From positions 147,779 to 211,778 of the forward strand of contig LFCP01000001.1 in assembly GCA_001189155.1 (NCBI GenBank): a DNA stretch of 64,000 nucleotides, given 5' to 3'. The notes under the pieces were generated by a model. It was not told the DNA's origin. It saw nothing but the letters and a program-made list of their open reading frames with translations, and ran no database searches. Source of the DNA: Parcubacteria bacterium C7867-006. Lineage in GTDB: Bacteria; Patescibacteriota; Minisyncoccia; Phycocordibacterales; DATDWN01. How positions within the stretch are numbered: the first letter of the stretch is position 1; each line of letters starts with the position of its first letter. The position numbers and the translations under genes were made by a program. This document shows positions 12,300-63,592 of the stretch, one piece after another.

Positions 12300-12350
12300 A
12301 TGTTTAGTTTAACAAATACTTTAGCTTTTCCATATAACAGAGTTAACAGA

Positions 12351-12380
12351 CTTGACGTTCTGGCTACAAAAGGTGTAGTA
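12351..12380 (+). promoter_or_regulatory. Sigma70-like promoter of GC-rich cassette A
   Basis: TTGACG (12351-56), an 18-nt spacer, then TAGTAT (12375-80). Confidence 0.5.
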
Positions 12381-12397
12381 TTTTACCCGGAGGCACG

Positions 12398-12617
12398 CAT
12401 GAGTACTGTGAAGAATATCTCTCACACACCAAACAAACACCAGGCTACCGCACAGCCCATTCGCCGAATCGTTTGTCCAGTCTGTCACATCAGCCAGCCG
12501 GACATTCGCCAGACGAAGTGTCAGAGCTGTGGTCGGTTGCTTCCGGCTCGGCCTGGCGTAGTGACTGCACCTGTTCCGTCCAAGCGGTGGTTCGGGGGGA
12601 TCGCTCCCTCCAGGTAG
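12398..12617 (+). CDS. Small zinc-ribbon protein (GC-rich cassette A)
   Basis: GGAGG (12388-92) lies 5 nt before the ATG. Product is MSTVKNISHTPNKHQATAQPIRRIVCPVCHISQPDIRQTKCQSCGRLLPARPG..., with a CPxC...CxxC zinc-ribbon motif. GC-rich codons sit inside an AT-rich genome. Confidence 0.55.
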
Positions 12618-12651
12618 ATATCCGCAAGACAGAATCCCACCTCGTGCAATA

Positions 12652-12728
12652 CCGCCATGGATCCCAGCCCATGGCAAAGCCCTCGTCGCTCGTCGTCGCT
12701 TGTCGTCGTCGTCCCCGTAGGGCTTTTT
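12652..12728 (+). terminator. Hairpins downstream of the cassette A gene
   Basis: gccatgg-atcccagc-ccatggc hairpin, then agccct...(CGT-rich loop)...agggct followed by ttttt. Confidence 0.4.
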
Positions 12729-12766
12729 CTATATTTGAAATTTTCTTTGTGCTATATTGATTCAGA

Positions 12767-30475: not shown

Positions 30476-30658
30476 ATGTTGTATTTGCGCGGGGTGTCTG
30501 GTCCGAGAAAGATACTCGCAACTCATCCTGAACTGAAGGAACTGCCGCCATTTGAGCGGACAGTCGCCATGATTAGGCTTCTCCGTCAGGAAGCTGAACG
30601 GCTCAAGTCGAAGAAGATCGAACAGTTCGATCGCGAAATTCCAGAATTGTTGTTCTGA
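30476..30658 (+). CDS. Small helical protein (GC-rich cassette B, 60 aa)
   Basis: GGGGGG precedes the ATG. Product is MLYLRGVSGPRKILATHPELKELPPFERTVAMIRLLRQEAERLKSKKIEQFDREIPELLF. GC-rich with its own terminator. Confidence 0.45.
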   Translation: MLYLRGVSGPRKILATHPELKELPPFERTVAMIRLLRQEAERLKSKKIEQFDREIPELLF

Positions 30659-41023: not shown

Positions 41024-41416
41024 TTAGAAATGAACGATGTTGATGTGGTTGTCGGTGAGAGTTGGGATTGCGACGTCGAGGATGGCCGGCATTGCCAGTT
41101 TGTCCATCTCGGACATCTTGATGAGTATATCTGACACACGGATCTCTCCGTTGGTTGGCAGTCCGCAGAGTGTTGAAAATTCTTTCGCTCCCCAGACTTC
41201 GAATCCAACGTAGTTTTTCTTTCCGTCTTCTTCGTGGTTCCGCCGAAGAAGAGACAGATGAGTTCCTTTGATGAACTCCTCTGTTGTAGAGCAGTCCTCA
41301 ACAATGACCGAAATCATGTCGAGTTCGTCGCTGTATGTAATACAGGGACGAAACGCCAGTCTCCCCGTGAGCCAACCCGAGAATATTTCATCTAAGGTTT
41401 GATTTTCCACATTCAC
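41024..41416 (-). CDS. Hypothetical 128-130 aa protein (GC-rich cassette C)
   Basis: Minus-strand promoter TTGAGT (complement of 41452-57), 17-nt spacer, TACAAT (complement of 41429-34); AGAGG SD; GTG start (41416, or 41410 with better SD spacing). GC-rich relative to the flanks; product MNVENQTLDEIFSGWLTGRLAFRPCITYSDELDMISVIVEDCSTTEEF... has no recognisable family. Confidence 0.5.
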   Translation of the reverse strand: MNVENQTLDEIFSGWLTGRLAFRPCITYSDELDMISVIVEDCSTTEEFIKGTHLSLLRRNHEEDGKKNYVGFEVWGAKEFSTLCGLPTNGEIRVSDILIKMSEMDKLAMPAILDVAIPTLTDNHINIVHF

Positions 41417-45902: not shown

Positions 45903-46166
45903 ATGAAAAAAGATATACATCCACAAAACTATAGACCAGTACTATTTATCGACAACTCAAATGGCGCTGAGTTTATTATTTCTTCTACTGTAGAAACTAA
46001 AGAGACAGCAAAATCAAAGGCTGATAAGAAAGAATACCCTGTTTACCGAGTTGAAATTTCAAGTGCATCGCACCCTTTCTATACTGGAAACGAGAAATCT
46101 CTAGATACAGCTGGTAGAGCAGAGAAGTTCCGAGCACGAGTTGCTAAAGCGAAAAAATCTAAGTAA
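45903..46166 (+). CDS. rpmE: Ribosomal protein L31
   Basis: MKKDIHPQNYRPV...HPFYTG. Confidence 0.85.
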   Translation: MKKDIHPQNYRPVLFIDNSNGAEFIISSTVETKETAKSKADKKEYPVYRVEISSASHPFYTGNEKSLDTAGRAEKFRARVAKAKKSK

Positions 46167-46318
46167 CGAAGTTTCTTTTTCCTCATAACTTTTCCGTCAC
46201 CGGAATAATTTTCTGCTGAAAATTTTCCTCGCGCTCATGTATCCACTCATTCCGCGATGTGCCGTAAAAGTTACGAGTTCGACGAAACTTCGTTTTTTGT
46301 TATGCTAAACTTAAACCA

Positions 46319-47296
46319 ATGGACCTAGAAAAATTTTTACAAAACCCAAAGACTGCATACCTAGCTCAGAGCTATAAGGCTCTTTTAGAGCAAGAGTCTT
46401 CTACAGAGCAAATGATAGAGAGTGATCCTTCACTTGCTGAGTTAGCGTACTCAGAACTTGAGGGTCTGAAAGAGCAAAAAGAAGCTCTTATGAAACAAAT
46501 GCAAGAGATTGTTTTTGAGGAGGAAAAAGAGGAAGAGTTTCCTAATGAGATTATTCTTGAAGTTAGAGCTGGGGCAGGAGGTGAAGAAGCATCTATTTTT
46601 GCCGAAGATTTGGCTCATATGTATACACGATACGCAGAAAACCAAGGTTGGTCTGTTTCTCCAATAGACGAGTCTAGGAGTGCGGTGGGGGGTTACAAAG
46701 AAGCCTCTTTTGAGATACGAGGACGTGATGTTTATAAACAACTTCGTTTTGAAACAGGTGTTCACAGAGTTCAGAGAATCCCGGCTACAGAGAAAATGGG
46801 GCGTGTTCACACTTCAACAGCAACGGTTGCCGTGCTTCCTGTACGAAAGAAAACTAGTATTGAAATAAAACCAAGTGATTTGGAAATTGAGACATCTCGT
46901 TCTGGTGGCGCTGGAGGACAGAATGTTAACAAAGTGGAAACGGCTGTAAGAATTATACATAAACCAACAGGAATAGATGTTCGCTCTACATCACAGCGAA
47001 GTCAGCTCAAAAATCGTGAAGCGGCAATGAGTATTTTGATAGCAAAACTGGAAAGAATGAAAGAAGAAGAGGAAGCTGCAAAGTATTCAGCAGATAGAAA
47101 GTCACAAGTTGGAACCGCTGATAGATCAGAGAAAATAAGAACATATAATATCCTACAAGACCGTATAACAGACCACCGTATTAAGCAGTCTTGGCACAAT
47201 ATTGAGAAGATTCTAGCTGGGGGACTAGAGCCAATAGTGGAGGCAATGGAGGGCTTTGATGGAACTAGTGTAAATAGTGGAGACTCTGATGAGTAA
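46319..47296 (+). CDS. prfA: Peptide chain release factor 1
   Basis: PAT tripeptide ([17 protein letters not shown]) and GGQ motif ([15 protein letters not shown]). Confidence 0.85.
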
Positions 47297-47340
47297 TTAA
47301 AAAACCTCTAGAAATAGAGTTTTTTTACTATATAAAATAC

Positions 47341-47369
47341 TTGACAAATATATTATATAGTAGTATAAT
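47341..47369 (+). promoter_or_regulatory. Consensus-perfect sigma70 promoter of GC-rich cassette E
   Basis: TTGACA (47341-46), a 17-nt spacer, then TATAAT (47364-69). Confidence 0.65.
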
Positions 47370-47406
47370 TATTAAAGATCTAACAATTTCCTTGAAAGGG
47401 GAAACA

Positions 47407-47796
47407 ATGCCCTATACGAAGACCTTCGCCGTTGTTACCAGCCTTCTCGCTTTTCAGATTGCCATGATGTGGTTCGCAGTTGGTTCCACTTCTGGCGGTA
47501 ACGAGTTCAAGACTGTGACAACCCACAGCTACGACGTTCCGTTCGAAAGGTACTGCGGTTATCTGGAAGAAGTTGCCCATGGAGTCATCCAGTTCGACGG
47601 CAAGGACCCAGTGGACATCGCGTATCTTTTCTTCCGCTCATCGGTTGGGAAGCCTAGCATCCCGCGTATCATCTACGGGGACACAGAGAGACTCAGTAAG
47701 ATTGAGTCGGGTCGTCATTACGACATCGGTGTCCGTCAGTACGGTGGTGGACTAAACTTCCCACGCCGTCTTGATGTAGTCGAGTCGTGCAAGTAG
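47407..47796 (+). CDS. Secreted/membrane-anchored hypothetical protein (GC-rich cassette E, 129 aa)
   Basis: AAGGGG SD lies 5 nt before the ATG. N-terminal signal/TM helix (TKTFAVVTSLLAFQIAMMWFAVGS), GC-rich codons. Confidence 0.55.
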   Translation: MPYTKTFAVVTSLLAFQIAMMWFAVGSTSGGNEFKTVTTHSYDVPFERYCGYLEEVAHGVIQFDGKDPVDIAYLFFRSSVGKPSIPRIIYGDTERLSKIESGRHYDIGVRQYGGGLNFPRRLDVVESCK

Positions 47797-47811
47797 TAGA
47801 TCTGAGCACAA

Positions 47812-47860
47812 GTCGGTGGGTTGATCCCACCGACAGGACCACACATTTGTGTGGTTTTTT
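47812..47860 (+). terminator. Tandem hairpin terminator of cassette E
   Basis: gtcggtggg-ttgat-cccaccgac, then ccacac-attt-gtgtgg followed by tttttt. Confidence 0.7.
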
Positions 47861-52750: not shown

Positions 52751-54658
52751 ATGAAAGTCTCATATAAATGGCTACAAGAATATATAGAAAATGAATTACC
52801 TCCAGTAGAAAGGGTGGTTGAGGCTTTAACTATGCATTCATTTGAGATAGAGGGTGTAGAGGATTTTGGCGACGATAAAATACTAGATGTAAAAGTTTTA
52901 CCAAACAGAACTCATGATTGTTTATCTCACTACGGGATAGCTTCTGAAATAGCTTCTGTCTGTGATTTAAAAAGAAAACCACTATTATCAAAACAAGATT
53001 TTCCAAAAACAGAAGATATAAAATTGTCTATTAATACAAAACTCTGCGTCAGGGCAGTGATGATTTTAATAAAAGATGTGGAAGTAGATGAAAGTCCAGA
53101 GTGGCTAAAAGAAAAGTTGAAAGTCTATGGAAATAAATCAATCAATAACATAGTTGATATAACAAACTATCTGACTTTTGCTTTCGGTCAGCCAATGCAC
53201 GCTTTTGATGCAGATAAAATCGCTAAAAATAAAAAGGACCAATACGAAATAATAATCCGTGACGCTAAAAAAGGAGAGAAAATAACTCTACTAGATGGAA
53301 AGGAATACACACTAGACTCAACCATGATGGTTATTTCAGATACAGAAAAGCCACTGGATGTTGCCGGGGTAATGGGTGGAAAAGATTCTGGAGTAAGCAG
53401 TGAGACAAAAAATATTATTTTATCTCTCTCTCATTTTGATCCTGTTTCTATAAGAAAAACCGCAAAAGCTTTGGGAATCAGAACAGACGCTTCTCAAAGG
53501 TTTGAGAACTCTATATCTCCATCTCTTATTGATCGAAGTTTGCCTTATGCTCTTGAGCTTATTGATGATTTAGTTGGTGGAATAGTTGTTGGCGGAACAG
53601 ATATATATCTAAAGGAACAAAAAGAAACAGTTATATTTATAACACCAGAAAAAATATCAGATATTTTAGGTGTAGATATTTCAGCTGAAGAAATAGTAAA
53701 AACTTTAGACAGACAAAATATAAAATCTGAAATAAAAGGGGGAGATATACTCGTTACTTCACCACTAGAGAGATTGGATTTAGAAATTCCAGAAAATATT
53801 GCAGAGGAGGTTGGGCGAATATACGGGTATGAAAAAGTTTTACCTAAAGAGCTTGGTCCTGGTCTAAAAGTGTCTGTTAATATTGAGGATTATACTTCAA
53901 ACTTGATTAGACTTTCTCTTTTGAAACAAGGATTTTCTGAAATATATACATACTCGTTTACAAATAAAGGTTTAGTTGAGTTAGAAAATCCTATTGCTGG
54001 AGATAAAAGTTTTCTAAGACAAGATTTAATTTCAGGAATGGAAGACTCTCTTGAACACAACTTCAAATACGCTGATTTGCTTGGAATAAAAGAGGTAAAA
54101 CTTTTTGAAATCGGAAAAGTTTTTGGTGGGAAAGGAGAGAAACTTCATTTGTGTATTGGAGTAAAGTTTCCAAAAAATAAAAAAACTCCAAGTGTTGATG
54201 AGGAATTAGCAAAAACTATTCAGAATCTAGAAAATGATTTAGGTATTTCTGTTGGAGATGTATCTATAATGAGCGGAGTGGTTGAGTTTGATATAGATAG
54301 AATTGTAAAAGAAATAAAAATAGGGGATACAAACTATGAAGAAGCTTCTTCTGTTTTGGGTAAAGATGTTTCTTACAAAACTATTTCCCCGTACCCTTTT
54401 GCGGTTAGAGATGTTGCAGTGTTTGTTCCAAACACTGTGAGTGAGGAAGCAGTAACTCAAATAATAAAAGATAAACTGACAGATATTGTTGTTAGATTTT
54501 CATTGTTTGATAAATTCGCAAAACCAGAAAAAACTTCATACGCATTTCGCCTAGTTTTCCAATCAAAAGAAAAGACTCTGACTGATGATGAAATAAATGC
54601 AGTAATGAACCCAATATACGAGACACTAAAAGCTCAAGAAGGCTTCGAAATAAGGTAG
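52751..54658 (+). CDS. pheT: Phenylalanyl-tRNA synthetase beta subunit (short form)
   Basis: B3/B4 and B5 domains, C-terminal FDX-ACB-like domain; 635 aa. Confidence 0.8.
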   Translation: MKVSYKWLQEYIENELPPVERVVEALTMHSFEIEGVEDFGDDKILDVKVLPNRTHDCLSHYGIASEIASVCDLKRKPLLSKQDFPKTEDIKLSINTKLCVRAVMILIKDVEVDESPEWLKEKLKVYGNKSINNIVDITNYLTFAFGQPMHAFDADKIAKNKKDQYEIIIRDAKKGEKITLLDGKEYTLDSTMMVISDTEKPLDVAGVMGGKDSGVSSETKNIILSLSHFDPVSIRKTAKALGIRTDASQRFENSISPSLIDRSLPYALELIDDLVGGIVVGGTDIYLKEQKETVIFITPEKISDILGVDISAEEIVKTLDRQNIKSEIKGGDILVTSPLERLDLEIPENIAEEVGRIYGYEKVLPKELGPGLKVSVNIEDYTSNLIRLSLLKQGFSEIYTYSFTNKGLVELENPIAGDKSFLRQDLISGMEDSLEHNFKYADLLGIKEVKLFEIGKVFGGKGEKLHLCIGVKFPKNKKTPSVDEELAKTIQNLENDLGISVGDVSIMSGVVEFDIDRIVKEIKIGDTNYEEASSVLGKDVSYKTISPYPFAVRDVAVFVPNTVSEEAVTQIIKDKLTDIVVRFSLFDKFAKPEKTSYAFRLVFQSKEKTLTDDEINAVMNPIYETLKAQEGFEIR

Positions 54659-54750: not shown

Positions 54751-56838
54751 ATGGCTGGAAAAAAAGATAGTTACGGTGCAGACGCTATACAGATTCTAGA
54801 GGGCTTGGAGCCGGTTAGAAAGCGACCCGGAATGTACATTGGTACAACTGGCCTTGATGGACTACACCACCTTATTACAGAAATTTTCGACAACTCTCGT
54901 GACGAAGCCATGGGTGGTTTTGCGAACGACATTGAGGTTGCACTACTGCCTGGAAACAGAATCCGAGTAACAGATAACGGACGAGGCATCCCAGTTGATA
55001 TTCACAAACAAACAAAAGTTTCAGCGCTTGAAACTATTATGACAACTCTCCACGCTGGAGGAAAGTTCGGTGGAGAAGGAACTGGTTACAAAGTTTCTGG
55101 AGGTTTGCATGGAGTAGGAGCATCTGTTGTAAACGCCTTATCTATCTATTGTAAAGTAACAGTTCACAAGGACGGTGGTATTTATATACAGGAGTATTCT
55201 CAAGGAAAGAGAAAAGCTGCTGTAAAGAAAATCGGAACAACTAAGAAAAATGGAACTATCGTGATGTTTGAACCAGATTCAGCTATTTTCCCAATCATTG
55301 ATTTTGATGCAAAAAGAGTAATGGATCATATGCGACAGCAAGCATATCTTGTAAAAGGTTTGCGTATCACTGTTGTTGATGCTTCAAAATACGAAGGTAA
55401 AATAAAAGAAGATGAAGTTTTCAAAATATCTGAGTTGGGGCTTGAGGTTCCATCAATGTCTTTCTACTTTGAGGGAGGATTACTTTCTCTTGTTAAATTT
55501 ATTAATCACGACCAGAAGCCTGTTCACAAAAATGTTTTCTATGTAGAGAAGAAAACAAATGAGTGGGAATCTGTTGAAGTTTCTCTTCAGTATGTAGATG
55601 ATATTGCGTGCCGACTTTCTGCTTTTGCAAACAACATCAACACTCCAGAAGGAGGAACTCATGTTACTGGTTTCAAAACTGCGCTTACTCGTACACTCAA
55701 CACATACGGACGAAAGAATAATATTATAAAAGAGTCAGAAGATAACTTTACCGGAGAGGATGTTTTGGAGGGACTAACAGCTGTGGTTTCAGTAAAACTA
55801 CGAGAGATTCAGTTTGAGGGACAGACAAAAGCAAAACTTGGAACAGTTGAGGCACAGTCTTCTGTTAACACTATTTTCTCAGAGGCATTTTCACAATTCC
55901 TAGAAGAAAATCCAGATGATGCAAAAGCTATAGTTAATAAAGTTATTCTTGCTCTAAAAGCTCGAAAGGCTGCGAAGGCTGCAAAAGACTCTGTTTTGCG
56001 AAAAGGCGCACTAGAGGGAATGACACTTCCTGGAAAGCTTGCTGACTGTCAGAGTAAATCAGCAGAGGATTCGGAGATATTTATTGTGGAGGGAGATTCC
56101 GCTGGAGGTACAGCAAAAACTGGTAGAGACAGAAAGACACAAGCCATACTTCCGCTCCGAGGAAAAATTTTGAACATTGAACGAGCTCGTCTAGATAGAA
56201 TGCTAGAGTCAGAACAAATTCGAAATCTCGTTATCGCACTCGGAACAGCTATAGGAGATACATTTGATATTAGTAAACTGCGATATCACAAAATTATTAT
56301 TGCAACAGATGCCGACGTGGACGGTGCTCATATTAGAACTTTGATTTTGACATTGTTATACAGATTTTTTAGACCACTTATCGATGGAGGTTTTGTTTAT
56401 ATTGCTCAACCACCTCTATTTAAAATAAAGAAGGGTAAGGAGTTGTTCTATGCGTATTCTGATGCAGAGCGAGATAGTATTATGAAGAAACTTGGTTTCG
56501 CTGATGTTGATCTAAATGAAATAACAACAGACTCTGATGAACCAGAGGTGGAAGGAGAGGAGACAGAAACAGAGGAGTCTGAAAATACTAAAAAATCTGA
56601 CTCTAAAAACGCAAAAACTAAAAAACCATCAATTCAACGATACAAAGGTCTCGGAGAAATGAACGCAGATGAGCTGTGGGAAACTACTATGGATCCAGCT
56701 AGAAGAGTGTTAAAACAAGTAAATATTGGTGATGGTGTTGCAGCAGACAAGGTGTTTGATGTACTCATGGGAAGTGATGTGCCTTCTCGAAAGTCGTTTA
56801 TTCAGTCAAACGCTACAAAAGCTAATTTGGATATCTAA
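54751..56838 (+). CDS. gyrB: DNA gyrase subunit B
   Basis: GHKL ATPase N-terminus (LEGLEPVRKRPGMYIGTTG), Toprim EGDSAGG, C-terminal RYKGLGEM. Confidence 0.85.
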   Translation: MAGKKDSYGADAIQILEGLEPVRKRPGMYIGTTGLDGLHHLITEIFDNSRDEAMGGFANDIEVALLPGNRIRVTDNGRGIPVDIHKQTKVSALETIMTTLHAGGKFGGEGTGYKVSGGLHGVGASVVNALSIYCKVTVHKDGGIYIQEYSQGKRKAAVKKIGTTKKNGTIVMFEPDSAIFPIIDFDAKRVMDHMRQQAYLVKGLRITVVDASKYEGKIKEDEVFKISELGLEVPSMSFYFEGGLLSLVKFINHDQKPVHKNVFYVEKKTNEWESVEVSLQYVDDIACRLSAFANNINTPEGGTHVTGFKTALTRTLNTYGRKNNIIKESEDNFTGEDVLEGLTAVVSVKLREIQFEGQTKAKLGTVEAQSSVNTIFSEAFSQFLEENPDDAKAIVNKVILALKARKAAKAAKDSVLRKGALEGMTLPGKLADCQSKSAEDSEIFIVEGDSAGGTAKTGRDRKTQAILPLRGKILNIERARLDRMLESEQIRNLVIALGTAIGDTFDISKLRYHKIIIATDADVDGAHIRTLILTLLYRFFRPLIDGGFVYIAQPPLFKIKKGKELFYAYSDAERDSIMKKLGFADVDLNEITTDSDEPEVEGEETETEESENTKKSDSKNAKTKKPSIQRYKGLGEMNADELWETTMDPARRVLKQVNIGDGVAADKVFDVLMGSDVPSRKSFIQSNATKANLDI

Positions 56839-57773
56839 TGTCTAAATATCTAGTAACAGGTGGGGCGGGGTTTATTGGTTCGAATATTGTGAAAAGACTA
56901 GTCGAAGAGGGAAAGGATGTGAGAGTTTTAGATAATCTCTCTACAGGAAAGATAAAGAACATCGAGCCTTTTCTCGACAAGATAGAGTTCATTGATGGCG
57001 ACTTTACTGATATTGAAGTTGCTCGGTCTGCTGTAAAAGGCGTGGACTACGTAATACACACAGGGGCTATACCTTCTGTACCACGTTCTATTGATGATCC
57101 AGTAAAAACAAACGCATCAAATATAACCGGAACACTCAACCTCCTCATTGCTTCTCGTGATGAAAAAGTAAAACGTTTTGTGTATTCAGCTTCGTCATCT
57201 GCATATGGAGACTCACCAGTAATGCCGAAGGAAGAAACTATGCCGATAGCTCCAAAGTCTCCATATGCAATACAGAAACTAGTTGGTGAGATGTATTGTC
57301 AGAATTTTTATAAATTATTTGGATTAGAGACTGTGTGTCTACGATACTTTAATGTGTTTGGTCCCAATCAAGATCCAGAGTCTGTTTACTCCGCAGTAAT
57401 ACCTTTGTTTATTAAAAAGCTACAAAAAGGTGAGTCACCAGTTATATTTGGAGACGGACTAACTTCTAGAGATTTTACTTATGTAGATAATAATGTTGAT
57501 GCAAACCTGCGAGCGTGTGTTGCAGACTCAGCTTGTGCAGGAGAGGTTATAAACATTGCTTGTGGGTATGAGATATCACTGAACCAGTTAGTTGAGAAAA
57601 TAAACACGGAGCTTGGAACTGATATAAAACCAGAATATAAAGATGAACGAGCCGGAGATGTAAAACACTCACTAGCAGACATTTTAAAAGCAGAAAAACT
57701 TTTGGGCTACAAACCTCTAGTTAGTTTTGAAGAAGGACTCAGAAAAACAATAGAGTTTTATAAAAACAAATAA
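56838..57773 (+). CDS. NAD-dependent epimerase/dehydratase (UDP-sugar 4-epimerase-like)
   Basis: VTGGAGFIGSN Rossmann motif, YxxxK (YAIQK). Confidence 0.8.
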   Translation: MSKYLVTGGAGFIGSNIVKRLVEEGKDVRVLDNLSTGKIKNIEPFLDKIEFIDGDFTDIEVARSAVKGVDYVIHTGAIPSVPRSIDDPVKTNASNITGTLNLLIASRDEKVKRFVYSASSSAYGDSPVMPKEETMPIAPKSPYAIQKLVGEMYCQNFYKLFGLETVCLRYFNVFGPNQDPESVYSAVIPLFIKKLQKGESPVIFGDGLTSRDFTYVDNNVDANLRACVADSACAGEVINIACGYEISLNQLVEKINTELGTDIKPEYKDERAGDVKHSLADILKAEKLLGYKPLVSFEEGLRKTIEFYKNK

Positions 57774-57774
57774 A

Positions 57775-57802
57775 CAAAAAACCTCCAAATTTGGAGGTTT
57801 TT
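57775..57802. terminator. Bidirectional intrinsic terminator
   Basis: aaaaaacctccaaatttggaggtttttt. Confidence 0.75.
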
Positions 57803-57805
57803 TGT

Positions 57806-58048
57806 TTATTTAGTTTCTTCCTTCTTTGTTTCAGTATACTCCGCCTCTTTCGCTTTAGCTTCTGGGTGTTTTGGAATAATTATTGTAGCAACGATGTAAC
57901 CTAGAATTGCAGGAACAACTCCTGTCATAATTGCTAGCACTATAAAAACAAGCCGAAGAACTGTAGGATCAATATCTACATATTCACCTATACCACCTAT
58001 AACTCCAGCTAGTATTTTGTCATCTTTACTTTTATATAGCTTTCTCAT
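57806..58048 (-). CDS. PspC-domain membrane protein
   Basis: KSKDDKILAGVIGGIGEYVDIDPTVLRLVFIVLAI. Confidence 0.7.
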   Translation of the reverse strand: MRKLYKSKDDKILAGVIGGIGEYVDIDPTVLRLVFIVLAIMTGVVPAILGYIVATIIIPKHPEAKAKEAEYTETKKEETK

Positions 58049-59333: not shown

Positions 59334-59404
59334 CTAGTAGAAAATTGAATTGTATTGACGTTTACTACTTATTATGTGAGAGTTATTTATGGAGGACCAG
59401 AAAG

Positions 59405-59608
59405 ATGAAGACTCTGAATCTCAGCCAGACTGGTCGTGCTATGGTGACGACGGCGTTGATGTACTTTCTCTTCATCGCTGTCGCGATCACACTACTCCTC
59501 AGTATCGGGACGTTGGGGTGGTACCTGTTTCTGGCCGTGGTTATCGCTTTCGCGGCCTTGAGGGCCTACAGCGACTGGGACAGGAGGAACTGGAGGGGGT
59601 TTTTCTAA
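59405..59608 (+). CDS. Small two-TM membrane protein (GC-rich cassette F, 67 aa)
   Basis: GGAGG (59391-95) lies 9 nt before the ATG. Product is MKTLNLSQTGRAMVTTALMYFLFIAVAITLLLSIGTLGWYLFLAVVIAFAALRAYSDWDRRNWRGFF. An upstream TTGACG (59355-60) may be its -35. Confidence 0.5.
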   Translation: MKTLNLSQTGRAMVTTALMYFLFIAVAITLLLSIGTLGWYLFLAVVIAFAALRAYSDWDRRNWRGFF

Positions 59609-59618
59609 TCCTTCTCCA

Positions 59619-59660
59619 TAGGGCTACCCGCGATTTCGTCGCTGGTAGCCCTTCAGCTTT
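59619..59660 (+). terminator. Intrinsic terminator of cassette F
   Basis: agggctaccc-gcgatttcgtcgc-tggtagccct followed by tcagctttt. Confidence 0.6.
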
Positions 59661-59835
59661 TATTGTGATTTTTGTCAGTGGAGGAAATAGTTTTTGAGAA
59701 ACATCCGCAGACGCCGAGCTTGGCGTTGTCAACGACCCGAGTATAACGAGGGCTCTTGACGACAAGGCGTTGAGGACAGAATGAGGCTTCCGTTGGAAGA
59801 AGCCGAATGTTTTCGAAAAACTATTTCTGAAACTT

Positions 59836-62800
59836 CTATTCCAACAATTTTACTTTATCAACCAAAATACTTTTTTCTCCATTTCTTAGAGAAAAAGTGC
59901 CTTTTATAACCACACAGCTTTCTGGTATTAATATATCTTGAAACTCTTCAAATATTTTTGGAAACGCAACTCCTTCAATTGTGTCAGTTAGATCTGATAT
60001 TTTTAAGAAAACCATTTTGTCTCCCTTTTTTGTGACGACAGGTTTTACCTCATCTATTATTCCACCAAAAACTATTGGCTGTTTTTCTTTTCCAGTTTCT
60101 TTTAATTTTTTAATATTATTTTCTCTACCTTCTAGTTTTTCTCGGAAAGATTCAAGTGGGTGTCCAGAAATATAGAGTCCAAGAAGTTCTTTTTCCCAAA
60201 GTAGTTTATCTGCAGAATTGCCGTGAGATGCTTTTTCTAAATCAATTTCTGTGACTTCTCCACTATTTATCATTCCACCGAAAAGAGAGTCTTGATCAGA
60301 TTCTTTTGCTCTTTCTTCTTTGTTAAAAGCCAACAGTCTATCTAGATTGTGAAGTAGAGTAAATCTGTATTGATCTTTGTCATCAGTATCTTTTGCTAGA
60401 GAGTCTAACGCCCCTGTTTTTATGAGGGATTCCATTGATTTTTTATTTAGGTTTTTGTCTTTTATGCGACTTAGGAAATCAGAAAGAGATTTGAATGGTC
60501 CATTTGCCTTTCTTTCGTCTATGATTGATGTGGCTATTCCTTCACCAAAATTTTTTATTGTAGAAAGTCCAAAACGGATAGTATCTATCTCCCCAGGATT
60601 TTTCGCCTTGTTTACTCCAAACCCTTCAAAAGAAAAGTTAACGTCTGGAGGAAGAACAGGTATGTTCATATGTTTACACTCACCGATTATTTCGGCAATC
60701 ATATCTGTGTCGCCAGATTCTGCTGTAAGAACAGCTGACATATATATAGCAGGGAAGTTGGCTTTCATATATGCGGTTTGATACGCGACACGTCCATAAC
60801 TCGCAGCGTGAGCTTTGTTGAAACCGTAACCCTGAAAAGGTTCAAACAAGAGCCATAGCTCTTCCGCTTTTTTCTCAGTCATTCCACCAAACTTTTGACA
60901 ACCCTCAACGAACTTCACATGTTGCTTCTTCATTTCCTCTGGGATTTTCTTTCCAACAGCTTTTCGGAATTTATCCACTTCACCCCAGTCGTAACCAGCT
61001 ATTTCAATGGCGGTATAGAGTAGGTCGTCCTGGTAAACAAGCACTCCAAAAGTTCTATCCAAAAAGTTTTTCATTTTTGGGTGTAGATATGTCACAGGTT
61101 TTTTGCCGTGCTTTCGCGCGATGTACTCGTTTATGTTATCCATCGGACCCGGTCGGTAAAGCGCCACCATCACGTTTATGTCGTGGATAGTTGTTGGCTT
61201 GAGTTCCTTCAGGGCCCGAGTCATTCCATCTCCATTTAGTTGGAAAAGTCCAATAGTTTCTCCTCGAGCCAGCATTTCAAAAGTTTTTTTATCATCTACT
61301 GGAACTGTATCCATATCAACATCTATTCCTTCTACTTTTTTTGTAATTTTTACAGCATCAGCCAATATTGATAGGTTTCTGATTCCAAGGAAGTCGAATT
61401 TTAGTAGCCCTACTCCGTCTTCACCAACAGCATGCATATCGTATTGAGTAATGATTTTGTTATCTCCTTTTGTATCGTACTGTAGTGGTACGTAGTCGGT
61501 AAGTGGAGTAGGTGAGATAACAACGCCAGCAGCGTGCACGGAGATATGGCGGGCACAACCTTCGATTTTTTTAGCCATATCAATTATTTTTTTTACGTCT
61601 TCATCGTCCGTATACATTTTTTTGAGTTCTGGATTTTCTTTTAAAGCTCTTTCGATTGTCATAGGGAATCCTTGTGCCCCCATTGGAATTGCCTTTGCAA
61701 TAGAGTCTCCAAGGCTGTATGGAAAACCAAGTGCGCGAGTTACATCACGAACAGAACCACGAGCAGCCATGGTACCGAACGTACCTATTTGAGCTACCTT
61801 ATCAATCCCATATTTTCCACGAGCATAGTCTATTACCTCGTCACGTCTGTTATCAGCAAAATCCATATCGATATCAGGAGCAGATGGTCTAGATGGATTG
61901 AGAAATCGCTCGAAAGGCAAATAGTATTCAATAGGATCTACATTTGTAATTCTAGTTAGATATGTTGTAAGGGAGCCTGCAACTGAACCTCGGATGTTTG
62001 TTAGTATTCCATGATCGTGGGCATAGTGCAGAAGATCGGACACAACGAGGAAATATGGAGCATAACCTTTATCTCTAATAACTTTTAATTCGTATTCTAA
62101 CCTCTCTATATATTCTGGAGTTTGTTTTAGATTTCTTTTTTCAAAACCTTCATACGCAATTTTTTTGAGTTCATCATCGTAAGACAAACCACTTTCAACA
62201 ATATAGTTTGGTAGGAACCATTTTCCAATAGATATTTCTAGATTACACCTATCAGCTATTTTTACTGTATTTTCTAGAGCTTCGGGTGTATCTTTGAAAA
62301 TTTTTTCAGCTTGTTTTTGAGTTATGAAAGAAAAGTCTTCATCACTTTCTTCTATTTTGTCATCATGTTGTGACTGAATAGAAAGTAGAGTTTGTCTGGC
62401 TATGCGGTCTTCTGAGCTTAGATAATAAACATCTTGAGCACCAACAATAGGTGTATTTGTATTTTTTGCAAATTGTATTATTTTTTTTGTATTTTCTTCA
62501 GTACCTTTTATTTCTGGATGGTGAGTTATTTCAAAATAAAGGTTTGGACCATCTTCGGTATCAGGAAAAGTTTTTTTATACCAAGACAACCTTTCATCTG
62601 CCTGTTCTGTATTTGAAAGTTGAAGAGATTTCGGTATGTCGCCACTCAAAGAAGGTATTATAGCAATAAGTCCCTCGTTGTATTTTTCTAAAAGTTCTCG
62701 GTCAATACGAGGTTTGTAGTAGAAACCTTCAAGATGGGCAAGAGTTACTAGCTTAATTAGATTTTTATACCCCGTATCATTTTTTGCTAGTAAGATTAGT

Positions 62801-63069
62801 CTGTATCTTTCTTTATCAATTCCAGATTGTTTATCTAGTCGGCTTCTATACGCAACATAAGCATCAATACCTATTATAGGTTTGATCTCTTTTTTCTTGC
62901 ACTTTTGGTAAAACTCTATCGCACCATATAAGTTGCAGTTATCAGTTAGAGCTATAGCAGTCTGTCCGTCTTTTACTGCTGCATCTATAAGGTCTGGGAT
63001 TTTTGGCAGAGCATTAAGTAGGGAATAATGAGAGTGGGTGTGAAGATGAATAAACTTTGAATCTGCCAT
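59836..63069 (-). CDS. dnaE: DNA polymerase III alpha subunit
   Basis: PHP domain (HLHTHSHYSLL) at the N-terminus, 1077 aa, OB-fold C-terminus. Confidence 0.9.
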   Translation of the reverse strand: MADSKFIHLHTHSHYSLLNALPKIPDLIDAAVKDGQTAIALTDNCNLYGAIEFYQKCKKKEIKPIIGIDAYVAYRSRLDKQSGIDKERYRLILLAKNDTGYKNLIKLVTLAHLEGFYYKPRIDRELLEKYNEGLIAIIPSLSGDIPKSLQLSNTEQADERLSWYKKTFPDTEDGPNLYFEITHHPEIKGTEENTKKIIQFAKNTNTPIVGAQDVYYLSSEDRIARQTLLSIQSQHDDKIEESDEDFSFITQKQAEKIFKDTPEALENTVKIADRCNLEISIGKWFLPNYIVESGLSYDDELKKIAYEGFEKRNLKQTPEYIERLEYELKVIRDKGYAPYFLVVSDLLHYAHDHGILTNIRGSVAGSLTTYLTRITNVDPIEYYLPFERFLNPSRPSAPDIDMDFADNRRDEVIDYARGKYGIDKVAQIGTFGTMAARGSVRDVTRALGFPYSLGDSIAKAIPMGAQGFPMTIERALKENPELKKMYTDDEDVKKIIDMAKKIEGCARHISVHAAGVVISPTPLTDYVPLQYDTKGDNKIITQYDMHAVGEDGVGLLKFDFLGIRNLSILADAVKITKKVEGIDVDMDTVPVDDKKTFEMLARGETIGLFQLNGDGMTRALKELKPTTIHDINVMVALYRPGPMDNINEYIARKHGKKPVTYLHPKMKNFLDRTFGVLVYQDDLLYTAIEIAGYDWGEVDKFRKAVGKKIPEEMKKQHVKFVEGCQKFGGMTEKKAEELWLLFEPFQGYGFNKAHAASYGRVAYQTAYMKANFPAIYMSAVLTAESGDTDMIAEIIGECKHMNIPVLPPDVNFSFEGFGVNKAKNPGEIDTIRFGLSTIKNFGEGIATSIIDERKANGPFKSLSDFLSRIKDKNLNKKSMESLIKTGALDSLAKDTDDKDQYRFTLLHNLDRLLAFNKEERAKESDQDSLFGGMINSGEVTEIDLEKASHGNSADKLLWEKELLGLYISGHPLESFREKLEGRENNIKKLKETGKEKQPIVFGGIIDEVKPVVTKKGDKMVFLKISDLTDTIEGVAFPKIFEEFQDILIPESCVVIKGTFSLRNGEKSILVDKVKLLE

Positions 63070-63148: not shown

Positions 63149-63173
63149 CAAAAAAGATCATTTGCGGGGTGCT

Positions 63174-63347
63174 ATGGGAGAAATCGTTCACGAAGTCCGT
63201 TGGCAAGTTCAGAACAACAGAAAGAATCTTCTGGAGTTCGGTGCAGTAATTGTGGTAATCCTTTTCACTGTTGCCGTGATTCTAGCTCCAGTTTTTGAGT
63301 TTGCGATAGGACTCGCAGCTTATATGGAAAGGAGGTTCTGGGGGTGA
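63174..63347 (+). CDS. Small membrane protein G1 (GC-rich cassette G)
   Basis: GGGG lies before the ATG at 63174 (the track uses a TTG at 63162). Product is MGEIVHEVRWQVQNNRKNLLEFGAVIVVILFTVAVILAPVFEFAIGLAAYMERRFWG. Confidence 0.5.
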   Translation: MGEIVHEVRWQVQNNRKNLLEFGAVIVVILFTVAVILAPVFEFAIGLAAYMERRFWG

Positions 63348-63592
63348 GCTTCATACACAAGGAAAGCCAGATCGGATCGGTTGCAATCATTGTCGGGTTG
63401 GTCTTCCTAGTCGCTGTTCTTGTCGGGTTATCCTCTAGTGCTGAGGAGCCTGTTCGAGCGACACTCTTGGGGATCTGTATCGCGTTTGCGATAACAGACC
63501 TTGCTCTGGTGCCCTATGTCTTCCAGAGTTTTCTTTTTTGGTGGCAACGCCGAAAAGAAGATAAGGAAGATGAAATGAGAAGGTACTGTTGA
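63344..63592 (+). CDS. Small two-TM membrane protein G2, translationally coupled to G1
   Basis: The GTG start overlaps the G1 TGA (GTGA), and GGAGG lies 8 nt upstream. Product is MSFIHKESQIGSVAIIVGLVFLVAVLVGLSSSAEEPVRATLLGICIAFAITDLALVPYVFQSFLFWWQRRKEDKEDEMRRYC. Confidence 0.5.
   Translation: MSFIHKESQIGSVAIIVGLVFLVAVLVGLSSSAEEPVRATLLGICIAFAITDLALVPYVFQSFLFWWQRRKEDKEDEMRRYC

Follow-up and report, generated by a model that had tools for sequence, protein, structure and literature searches.

The spacer between thrS and dnaE in Parcubacteria bacterium C7867-006 contains an accessory micro-gene followed by a 166-bp insertion found in this strain only, and with moderate confidence this insertion is best regarded as a MITE-like non-autonomous element or an equivalent foreign insertion made through a staggered cut. 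The sequence analysed, referred to as the window, is a stretch of 64,000 nucleotides, and positions are counted within it. C7867-006 is a metagenome-assembled genome (MAG) from Hanford sediment, 652 kb in size and 36% in GC (PMC4508563). In the window, dnaE (59836-63069) lies on the minus strand, ending in a stop codon that reads TAG on that strand (59836-59838), and thrS (58062-59312/59333) is found downstream on the same strand. Over the approximately 500 nt between the two genes, GC climbs to 50-62%, in comparison to 35.8% for the window. A JGI metagenome contig and a Logan assembly of the same strain (L047 and L048) match these 500 nt at 100% identity, thus the insertion is not an artefact of the MAG assembly. 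ARAGORN found no tRNA or tmRNA in this region.

The first component of the spacer is a micro-ORF on the plus strand (59405-59608), encoding a membrane protein of 67 amino acids. The sequence-only reading had proposed a protein with two transmembrane (TM) segments preceded by GGAGG-N9-ATG, and both features are borne out: the Shine-Dalgarno GGAGG occupies 59391-59395, 9 nt ahead of the ATG at 59405, and the protein has a hydrophobic stretch of 45 residues that AlphaFold models as a helical hairpin (H6-32 and H36-66; pLDDT 78.6). Its C-terminal region carries the conserved motif W-x3-NWRG-(F/Y)(F/L). A search of 5.8 billion proteins returned a single homologue (P0001, 82% identity), a further orthologue (P0122) came from a profile search against 1.84 billion cluster representatives, and the third and more remote orthologue, with 27% identity, is an ORF left uncalled in L003/L004/L045. 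All of these occupy the same slot, antisense between thrS and dnaE, and the C-terminal W-x3-N-W-R-G is invariant in all four orthologous sequences. Their Shine-Dalgarno sequences, in an alignment of the micro-ORF lineages, are GGAGG or GGGAGG. In comparison to L001, 25 of the 41 differences fall at third codon positions, dN/dS is 0.11 in frame, as opposed to 1.2 and 2.0 for the two alternative frames, and dS is approximately 1. Judged from its sequence, the micro-ORF is a real gene under purifying selection, given the in-frame dN/dS, the orthologues in the same slot, the covariation in its terminator and the helical-hairpin model. No significant match was found in Pfam, NCBIfam, PHROGs, PADLOC or the PDB sequences. 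The best profile match is VirB3, with an E-value of 0.011 that falls below the VirB3 cut-off, and the remaining matches reflect hydrophobic bias.

Gene callers overlook the micro-ORF. In the same strain, an ORF of 102 amino acids in the wrong frame is called instead (L047 9616-9924; L048 1857-2165), and in L003 a 32-amino-acid antisense ORF (2179-2277) is called in place of the micro-protein. The near-invisibility of this family in protein databases, with two homologues among billions of proteins, is thus explained by automatic calls that miss the gene. The composition of the gene is also unusual, with a third-position GC content (GC3) of 0.76, compared to 0.27-0.31 in neighbouring genes of the window. 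Across the four lineages (window 59405-59608; L001 1335-1541; L049 1473-1667; the L003 spacer), GC3 of the micro-ORF ranges from 0.65 to 0.76 and that of thrS in the same contigs from 0.30 to 0.34, and the micro-proteins are mutually 27-82% identical. As the high GC3 persists over long divergence, it is not a signature of fresh transfer.

Upstream of the Shine-Dalgarno, a putative promoter/leader block on the plus strand (59345-59383) consists of TTGAAT (59345-59350), TTGACG (59355-59360), 14 nt and TGT-GAGAGT (59375-59383). This block, located beside the start of thrS, is kept in all four micro-ORF lineages of the alignment, and its spacing suggests that it is the promoter of the micro-ORF; a consensus promoter scan made no call there. 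The block probably overlaps the divergent minus-strand promoter of thrS. Downstream, the terminator with a 9-bp stem that had been read from the sequence is confirmed as an intrinsic terminator on the plus strand (59620-59664), in which a hairpin of 9 bp and an inner 5 bp (59620-59652; -25.7 kcal/mol, z -5.8) is followed by the T-rich tract TCAGCTTTTATT. The hairpin is kept in L001 and L049, where two of its 14 pairs are changed on both sides in a compensatory manner; a GC-rich stem, a T-tract and compensatory changes are thus all present. It is a standard intrinsic terminator, of the kind shared by convergent genes, and in the relatives its T-tract overlaps the dnaE stop. The conserved unit of the locus is the promoter, the micro-ORF and the terminator.

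Beyond this unit lies the 166-bp insertion (59665-59830), referred to here as the tail, which is absent at the orthologous junctions. An alignment of the window with L001 by blastn runs unbroken from thrS through the micro-ORF and terminator to 59664; a second segment starts at 59831, and on L001 the two have 10 bp in common (AACTTTTATT; L001 1588-1597). This sequence is single-copy in L001, with similar single sites in L049 and L003. In the window it corresponds to a 10-bp direct repeat flanking the tail, of which the left copy, AGCTTTTATT (59655-59664), is the T-tract of the terminator, and the right copy, AACTTCTATT (59831-59840), holds the dnaE stop codon. The two copies are identical to each other at eight of ten positions, and each is identical to the single L001 site at nine of ten; by a binomial estimate, the chance of a flank match of at least 8/10 in this composition is approximately 0.002. 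Such a duplicated target is the mark left by insertion at a staggered cut.

Comparison with the relatives supports an empty site. In L001/L002, L049/L050 and L003/L004/L045, the T-run of the terminator (…TTTTATTC…) directly abuts the reverse-complemented stop and last codons of dnaE. The same arrangement, or absence of the element, is seen in L006, L007, L008 and L054. The tail is thus missing from all three other lineages that carry the micro-ORF. The sequence-only reading had included the tail in a single cassette with the micro-ORF, had taken a hairpin in it as a possible small RNA or dnaE terminator, and had named the 3' UTR of dnaE in relatives as the alternative. The comparison supports this view only in part: the gene, its terminator and the non-coding nature of the tail hold, and most of what had been observed is right, but the tail behaves as a separate insertion with a target-site-like duplication and is thus neither a conserved small RNA nor a 3' UTR that dnaE has in the relatives. 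The polarity of the event is set by parsimony, as a deletion between repeats in the relatives would look alike, with the repeats still needing explanation.

Within the tail, the dominant feature is a 24-nt imperfect inverted repeat (59684-59707 and 59804-59827; 83% complementary), which had been overlooked in the sequence-only reading together with the flanking direct repeat. Its arms, with the consensus GAAATAGTTTTTGRGAAAC, form the 5' half (59683-59707) and the 3' half (59804-59828) of a closing helix, P1, in which about 20 bp are predicted between 59683-59704 and 59807-59828. The helix encloses two hairpins in the minimum free energy (MFE) folds and gives a Y-shaped structure. Hairpin A, long and imperfect (59710-59771), is an MFE prediction from a single sequence; hairpin B, with six base pairs, has the form GGCTTC-N8-GAAGCC (59785-59804). 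A second TTGACG and the six-base-pair hairpin had both been noticed previously and do exist, with their positions corrected from 59746-59751 to 59756-59761 and from 59777-59796 to 59785-59804, respectively; these were slips of approximately 8-10 nt, and the loop of the hairpin had been given in its minus-strand reading. The TTGACG does not hold as a -35 element, as it lies inside the predicted helix of hairpin A and has no supporting -10. Likewise, hairpin B is not the dnaE terminator that had been suggested, being an arm of the larger structure with no U-run after it on the minus strand. The left arm is set back 19 nt from the left boundary of the insertion, and the right arm 3 nt from the right boundary; owing to the offset of the left arm, the inverted repeats are not strictly terminal.

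The tail folds stably as RNA on either strand, with -57 kcal/mol (z -3.5) for the plus strand and -50 kcal/mol (z -4.4) for the minus strand, and its z-score when folded as DNA is -4.1. None of the shuffled sequences matched the native stability on either strand. These folds are predictions from one sequence. The tail has a GC content of 48% (54% in the core) in comparison to 36% for the genome, consistent with the earlier description of an approximately 170-nt GC-rich stretch without a convincing ORF. The ORFs that it contains are of the size expected by chance (21-24 amino acids), in addition to ORFs entering from outside, and the tail is non-coding. It differs from intrinsic terminators in that no U-run follows the closing helix on either strand, and it lies beyond the true terminator.

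Such stability raises the question of whether the tail was brought in by insertion as a plus-strand gene for a small structured RNA, which would now have a role in trans or in cis, for example one linked to the micro-protein. The plus strand folds 6-7 kcal/mol better than the minus strand due to five G-U pairs, which become A-C mismatches on the other strand, and a GC content above that of the genome is typical of structured RNAs in AT-rich genomes. However, all relatives that keep the micro-ORF lack the tail, and the tail directly follows an efficient-looking terminator with no recognisable promoter of its own, a promoter consensus scan having found none. Furthermore, there is no Rfam match and no homologue, so that covariation is unavailable, and in a crude test the duplex energies of the tail with the micro-ORF mRNA fall within the range of shuffles. 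A small RNA gene is thus an unlikely identity for the tail.

The position of the tail relative to dnaE suggests a different role. On the minus strand, the closing helix starts at 59828, 7 nt past the stop codon (59838-59836), and the tail must therefore belong to the dnaE transcript. A helix of about 20 bp is of the size recognised by RNase III, a gene for which is encoded in the genome (L047 3109-3807), and could be an RNase III substrate. Together with the z-score of the minus-strand fold, these features are compatible with a cis element that selection maintains in the dnaE mRNA, and that could stabilise the 3' UTR, be a site of RNase III processing, or insulate dnaE from the convergent micro-ORF or from thrS downstream. 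Arguing in the other direction, the relatives manage without the tail, no conservation points to selection, and the lack of a minus-strand U-run after the structure means that it is no intrinsic terminator. A selected cis element is consequently an improbable explanation.

It is very improbable that the tail encodes a peptide, in this case the arginine-rich sequence MRNIRRRRAWRCQRPEYNEGS of 21 amino acids, read at 59694-59759 from a TTG start. The ORF is present and has the arrangement GGAGG-N9-TTG, at the 9-nt spacing also seen for the micro-ORF; however, the closing helix sequesters both the Shine-Dalgarno and the start codon, the start is a TTG, there is no homologue, and an ORF of this size is expected by chance in GC-rich sequence. 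The related idea that the 5' end of the tail is a duplicate of the micro-ORF leader and its -10 was rejected, as the similarity is not significant (p ~0.2-0.35).

The locus comprises two separate things. One is a genuine accessory gene with its own promoter, Shine-Dalgarno and terminator, antisense to dnaE and thrS. The other is the insert: in the lineage of this strain only, 166 bp entered behind the terminator, with duplication of the 10-bp target AACTTTTATT. In the relatives this target is both T-tract and dnaE stop, and because it was duplicated, the terminator and the stop codon both survived, the left copy retaining the T-tract and the right copy the stop. The near-terminal inverted repeats around a GC-richer core allow either strand to fold into the Y shape, and transcription of dnaE on the minus strand necessarily runs into the insert, which opens the 3' UTR past the stop codon. 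Under the favoured reading of a MITE-like or equivalent insertion, the tail would be a mobile sequence that is passively transcribed and has presumably no selected function.

Searches for relatives of the tail were largely negative. Rfam 15, searched with the window and the local region at the gathering threshold and at E<=10, gave no relevant match; the best local matches (E 0.87-7) are unrelated eukaryotic and viral families far under their gathering scores. No match was found by blastn of the tail against phages and plasmids, and from four scans of viral contigs came a single 20-mer match, located within coding sequence and due to chance. The antisense frame of the tail, which is open throughout, was used as a protein query intended to catch mis-called ORFs on other copies, and likewise found no match. 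No second copy was found in the 64-kb window and the approximately 5 kb beyond it, out of a genome of 652 kb, or in the other fetched loci and the scanned collections. Within the window, pheT (52751-54658) contains a match to 22 of the 24 nt of the left arm (GGAAATAGTTTTGTAAGAAACATC; 54365-54388, minus strand; blastn E 0.002). This match has no partner arm and was rejected as a related copy, being probably due to chance.

Genome and metagenome collections were scanned with a pattern of the outer 12+12 nt of the arms, and these exact-arm scans found no element with a related core. Seven palindromes with long extended stems from the arm scan (L012, L013, L014, L020, L037, L040 and L044) were considered as one family and rejected, since their cores are unrelated. 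The depth of the 12-mer in these palindromes varies from 0 to 57 nt from the outer ends, and they are regarded as chance matches because any long inverted repeat that contains the 12-mer matches both arms. L012 alone, from Candidatus Paceibacterota isolate STB_28 (2086-2247), shares 19 of 20 arm nucleotides with the tail. It is laid out like the tail, with a 24-bp closing helix and two inner hairpins (-97.6 kcal/mol, z -13.4), and sits between two convergent genes. The L012 element has no flanking duplication and no core alignable to the tail, and is a weak lead of low probability for kinship. It is conceivable, if improbable, that the tail and L012 represent an undescribed family of structured mobile elements specific to Paceibacterota, with arms of about 20 nt (GAAATAGTTTTTG-GAAAC and its complement) and exchangeable GC-rich cores. 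In that case, the elements or the mechanism of 10-bp duplication could load GC3-rich orphan cassettes into hot spots such as dnaE-thrS.

Other structured or GC-rich segments are found elsewhere in the window. A palindromic element on the plus strand (46160-46305), between rpmE (L31; 45903-46166) and a gene at 46319-47296, has 36-nt arms and a Y-shaped fold (-43 kcal/mol, z -6.1) with a U-run after it. It has no Rfam match, and its sequence is unrelated to the tail despite similar architecture. A seemingly perfect bidirectional terminator palindrome (57763-57816) with 27-nt arms, 93% complementary and without a spacer, lies between an epimerase gene (56838-57773) and a PspC-domain gene (57806-58048), with sub-threshold Rfam matches only (Phe_leader and rimP). 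Additional GC-rich islands, with up to 63% GC, are located at ~12340-12730, 30476-30658, 41024-41416 (minus strand), ~47340-47860 and 63162-63592. Those at ~12340-12730 and 47340-47860 contain small ORFs with promoter-like and terminator-like sequences, and apparently correspond to other cassettes of the sequence-only reading. A GC-rich non-coding stretch of approximately 110 nt (~12618-12730) precedes the terminator of the former island.

Small palindromic elements are found in a range of bacteria, including the Correia/NEMIS elements of Neisseria, RUP of Streptococcus pneumoniae, ERIC/IRU of enterobacteria and the Rickettsia palindromic elements. The nearest analogues of the tail are bacterial MITEs, and it resembles these and the other small palindromic elements in its size class of 100-200 bp, its non-coding content, its inverted repeats in terminal or near-terminal position and its flanking target duplication. 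It is also alike in folding as a long hairpin, in being located just past a stop codon and co-transcribed with its neighbour, and in its presence/absence polymorphism between close relatives. At 166 bp it falls within the size of non-coding MITEs (<300 bp), and a target duplication with an empty site in relatives is present. In contrast to MITEs, the tail is known from a single copy in all of the sequences searched (the window, ~5 kb beyond it, fetched loci and collections), no parent IS or transposase is known, and the left arm is offset by 19 nt. The tail is not filed as a member of a MITE family, owing to the lack of multiple copies within reach and of a known parent IS. In addition, its duplication is 10 bp, unlike that of Correia elements, which duplicate TA, and it has no sequence similarity to any described element, the Rfam, phage and plasmid searches being negative.

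Two other known systems share part of this layout. Integron cassettes with attC sites also have a small ORF followed by an imperfect palindrome, with exchangeable content. However, the palindrome is missing from the other cassettes of the slot, which end in plain terminators and, unlike integron cassettes, have their own promoters. Furthermore, no GTTRRRY or RYYYAAC boxes were seen when the tail arms were read by eye, so that the arms do not have the form of attC, and no integrase was noticed in a visual reading of the ORF lists. Type I toxin-antitoxin systems are similar in that they, too, combine a small hydrophobic membrane protein, expressed from its own promoter, with a neighbouring segment that is structured and non-coding, at a variable accessory locus. 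The micro-protein is larger than typical type I toxins, with 67 amino acids and two helices rather than a single helix, and the putative RNA is absent from all other lineages with the protein. In a crude test, no antisense complementarity above that of shuffles was detected, and the micro-protein has no match in PADLOC or Pfam.

The slot formed by the dnaE-thrS spacer is hypervariable, and the relatives examined carry no fewer than six different sets of orphan genes in it. The thrS genes of the strains compared are 88-97% identical, except in P0003/L046, which is more diverged and only partly alignable, and the DNA flanking the slot is 81-88% identical between strains. The micro-ORF is found in the window, L001, L049 and L003. 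In its place, L006 has a 94-amino-acid ORF with a 61-amino-acid two-TM ORF, L007 the 94-amino-acid ORF alone, L008-L011 an ORF of 197 amino acids, L046 a 71-amino-acid TM ORF with one of 185 amino acids, and L054 a 70-amino-acid ORF with a 49-amino-acid TM ORF. All slot ORFs are antisense to dnaE and thrS, all are orphans, and most encode small membrane proteins; the other slot genes have no match in Pfam or PHROG. Their GC3 is 0.54-0.76 in comparison to ~0.3 for the host, with the exception of the 197-amino-acid ORF of L008 (0.39), and this elevation holds across deep divergence. The cassette terminators of L003, which carries the micro-ORF, and of L006, which carries the 94- and 61-amino-acid ORFs, share homology (…GGCGGGCGACTCGTTTTTTA), and what the slot holds thus looks mosaic, built from exchangeable modules.

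This variability bears on another origin for the tail, as non-mobile filler left by illegitimate recombination, repair or cassette exchange, with the direct repeat arising from microhomology and the palindrome as a by-product. A recombination hot spot with so many contents, the single known copy and the inverted repeats that are not strictly terminal are all consistent with filler. However, the 10-bp duplication exceeds usual microhomology, a 24-nt inverted repeat around a core is unexpected in random filler, and the core has no match in other slot variants by blastn or tblastx. Such an origin is rather unlikely, and insertion of a MITE-like element, or an equivalent staggered-cut event, is preferred.

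Taken alone, the tail would be among the very few MITE-like insertions on record for bacteria of the candidate phyla radiation. Its lesson is that an intergenic segment of an AT-rich genome may be GC-rich and fold well without being an RNA gene. The slot is of more interest than the tail, as it gives inexpensive access to the Parcubacteria accessory genome, and its persistent GC3-richness stands out as a compositional anomaly.
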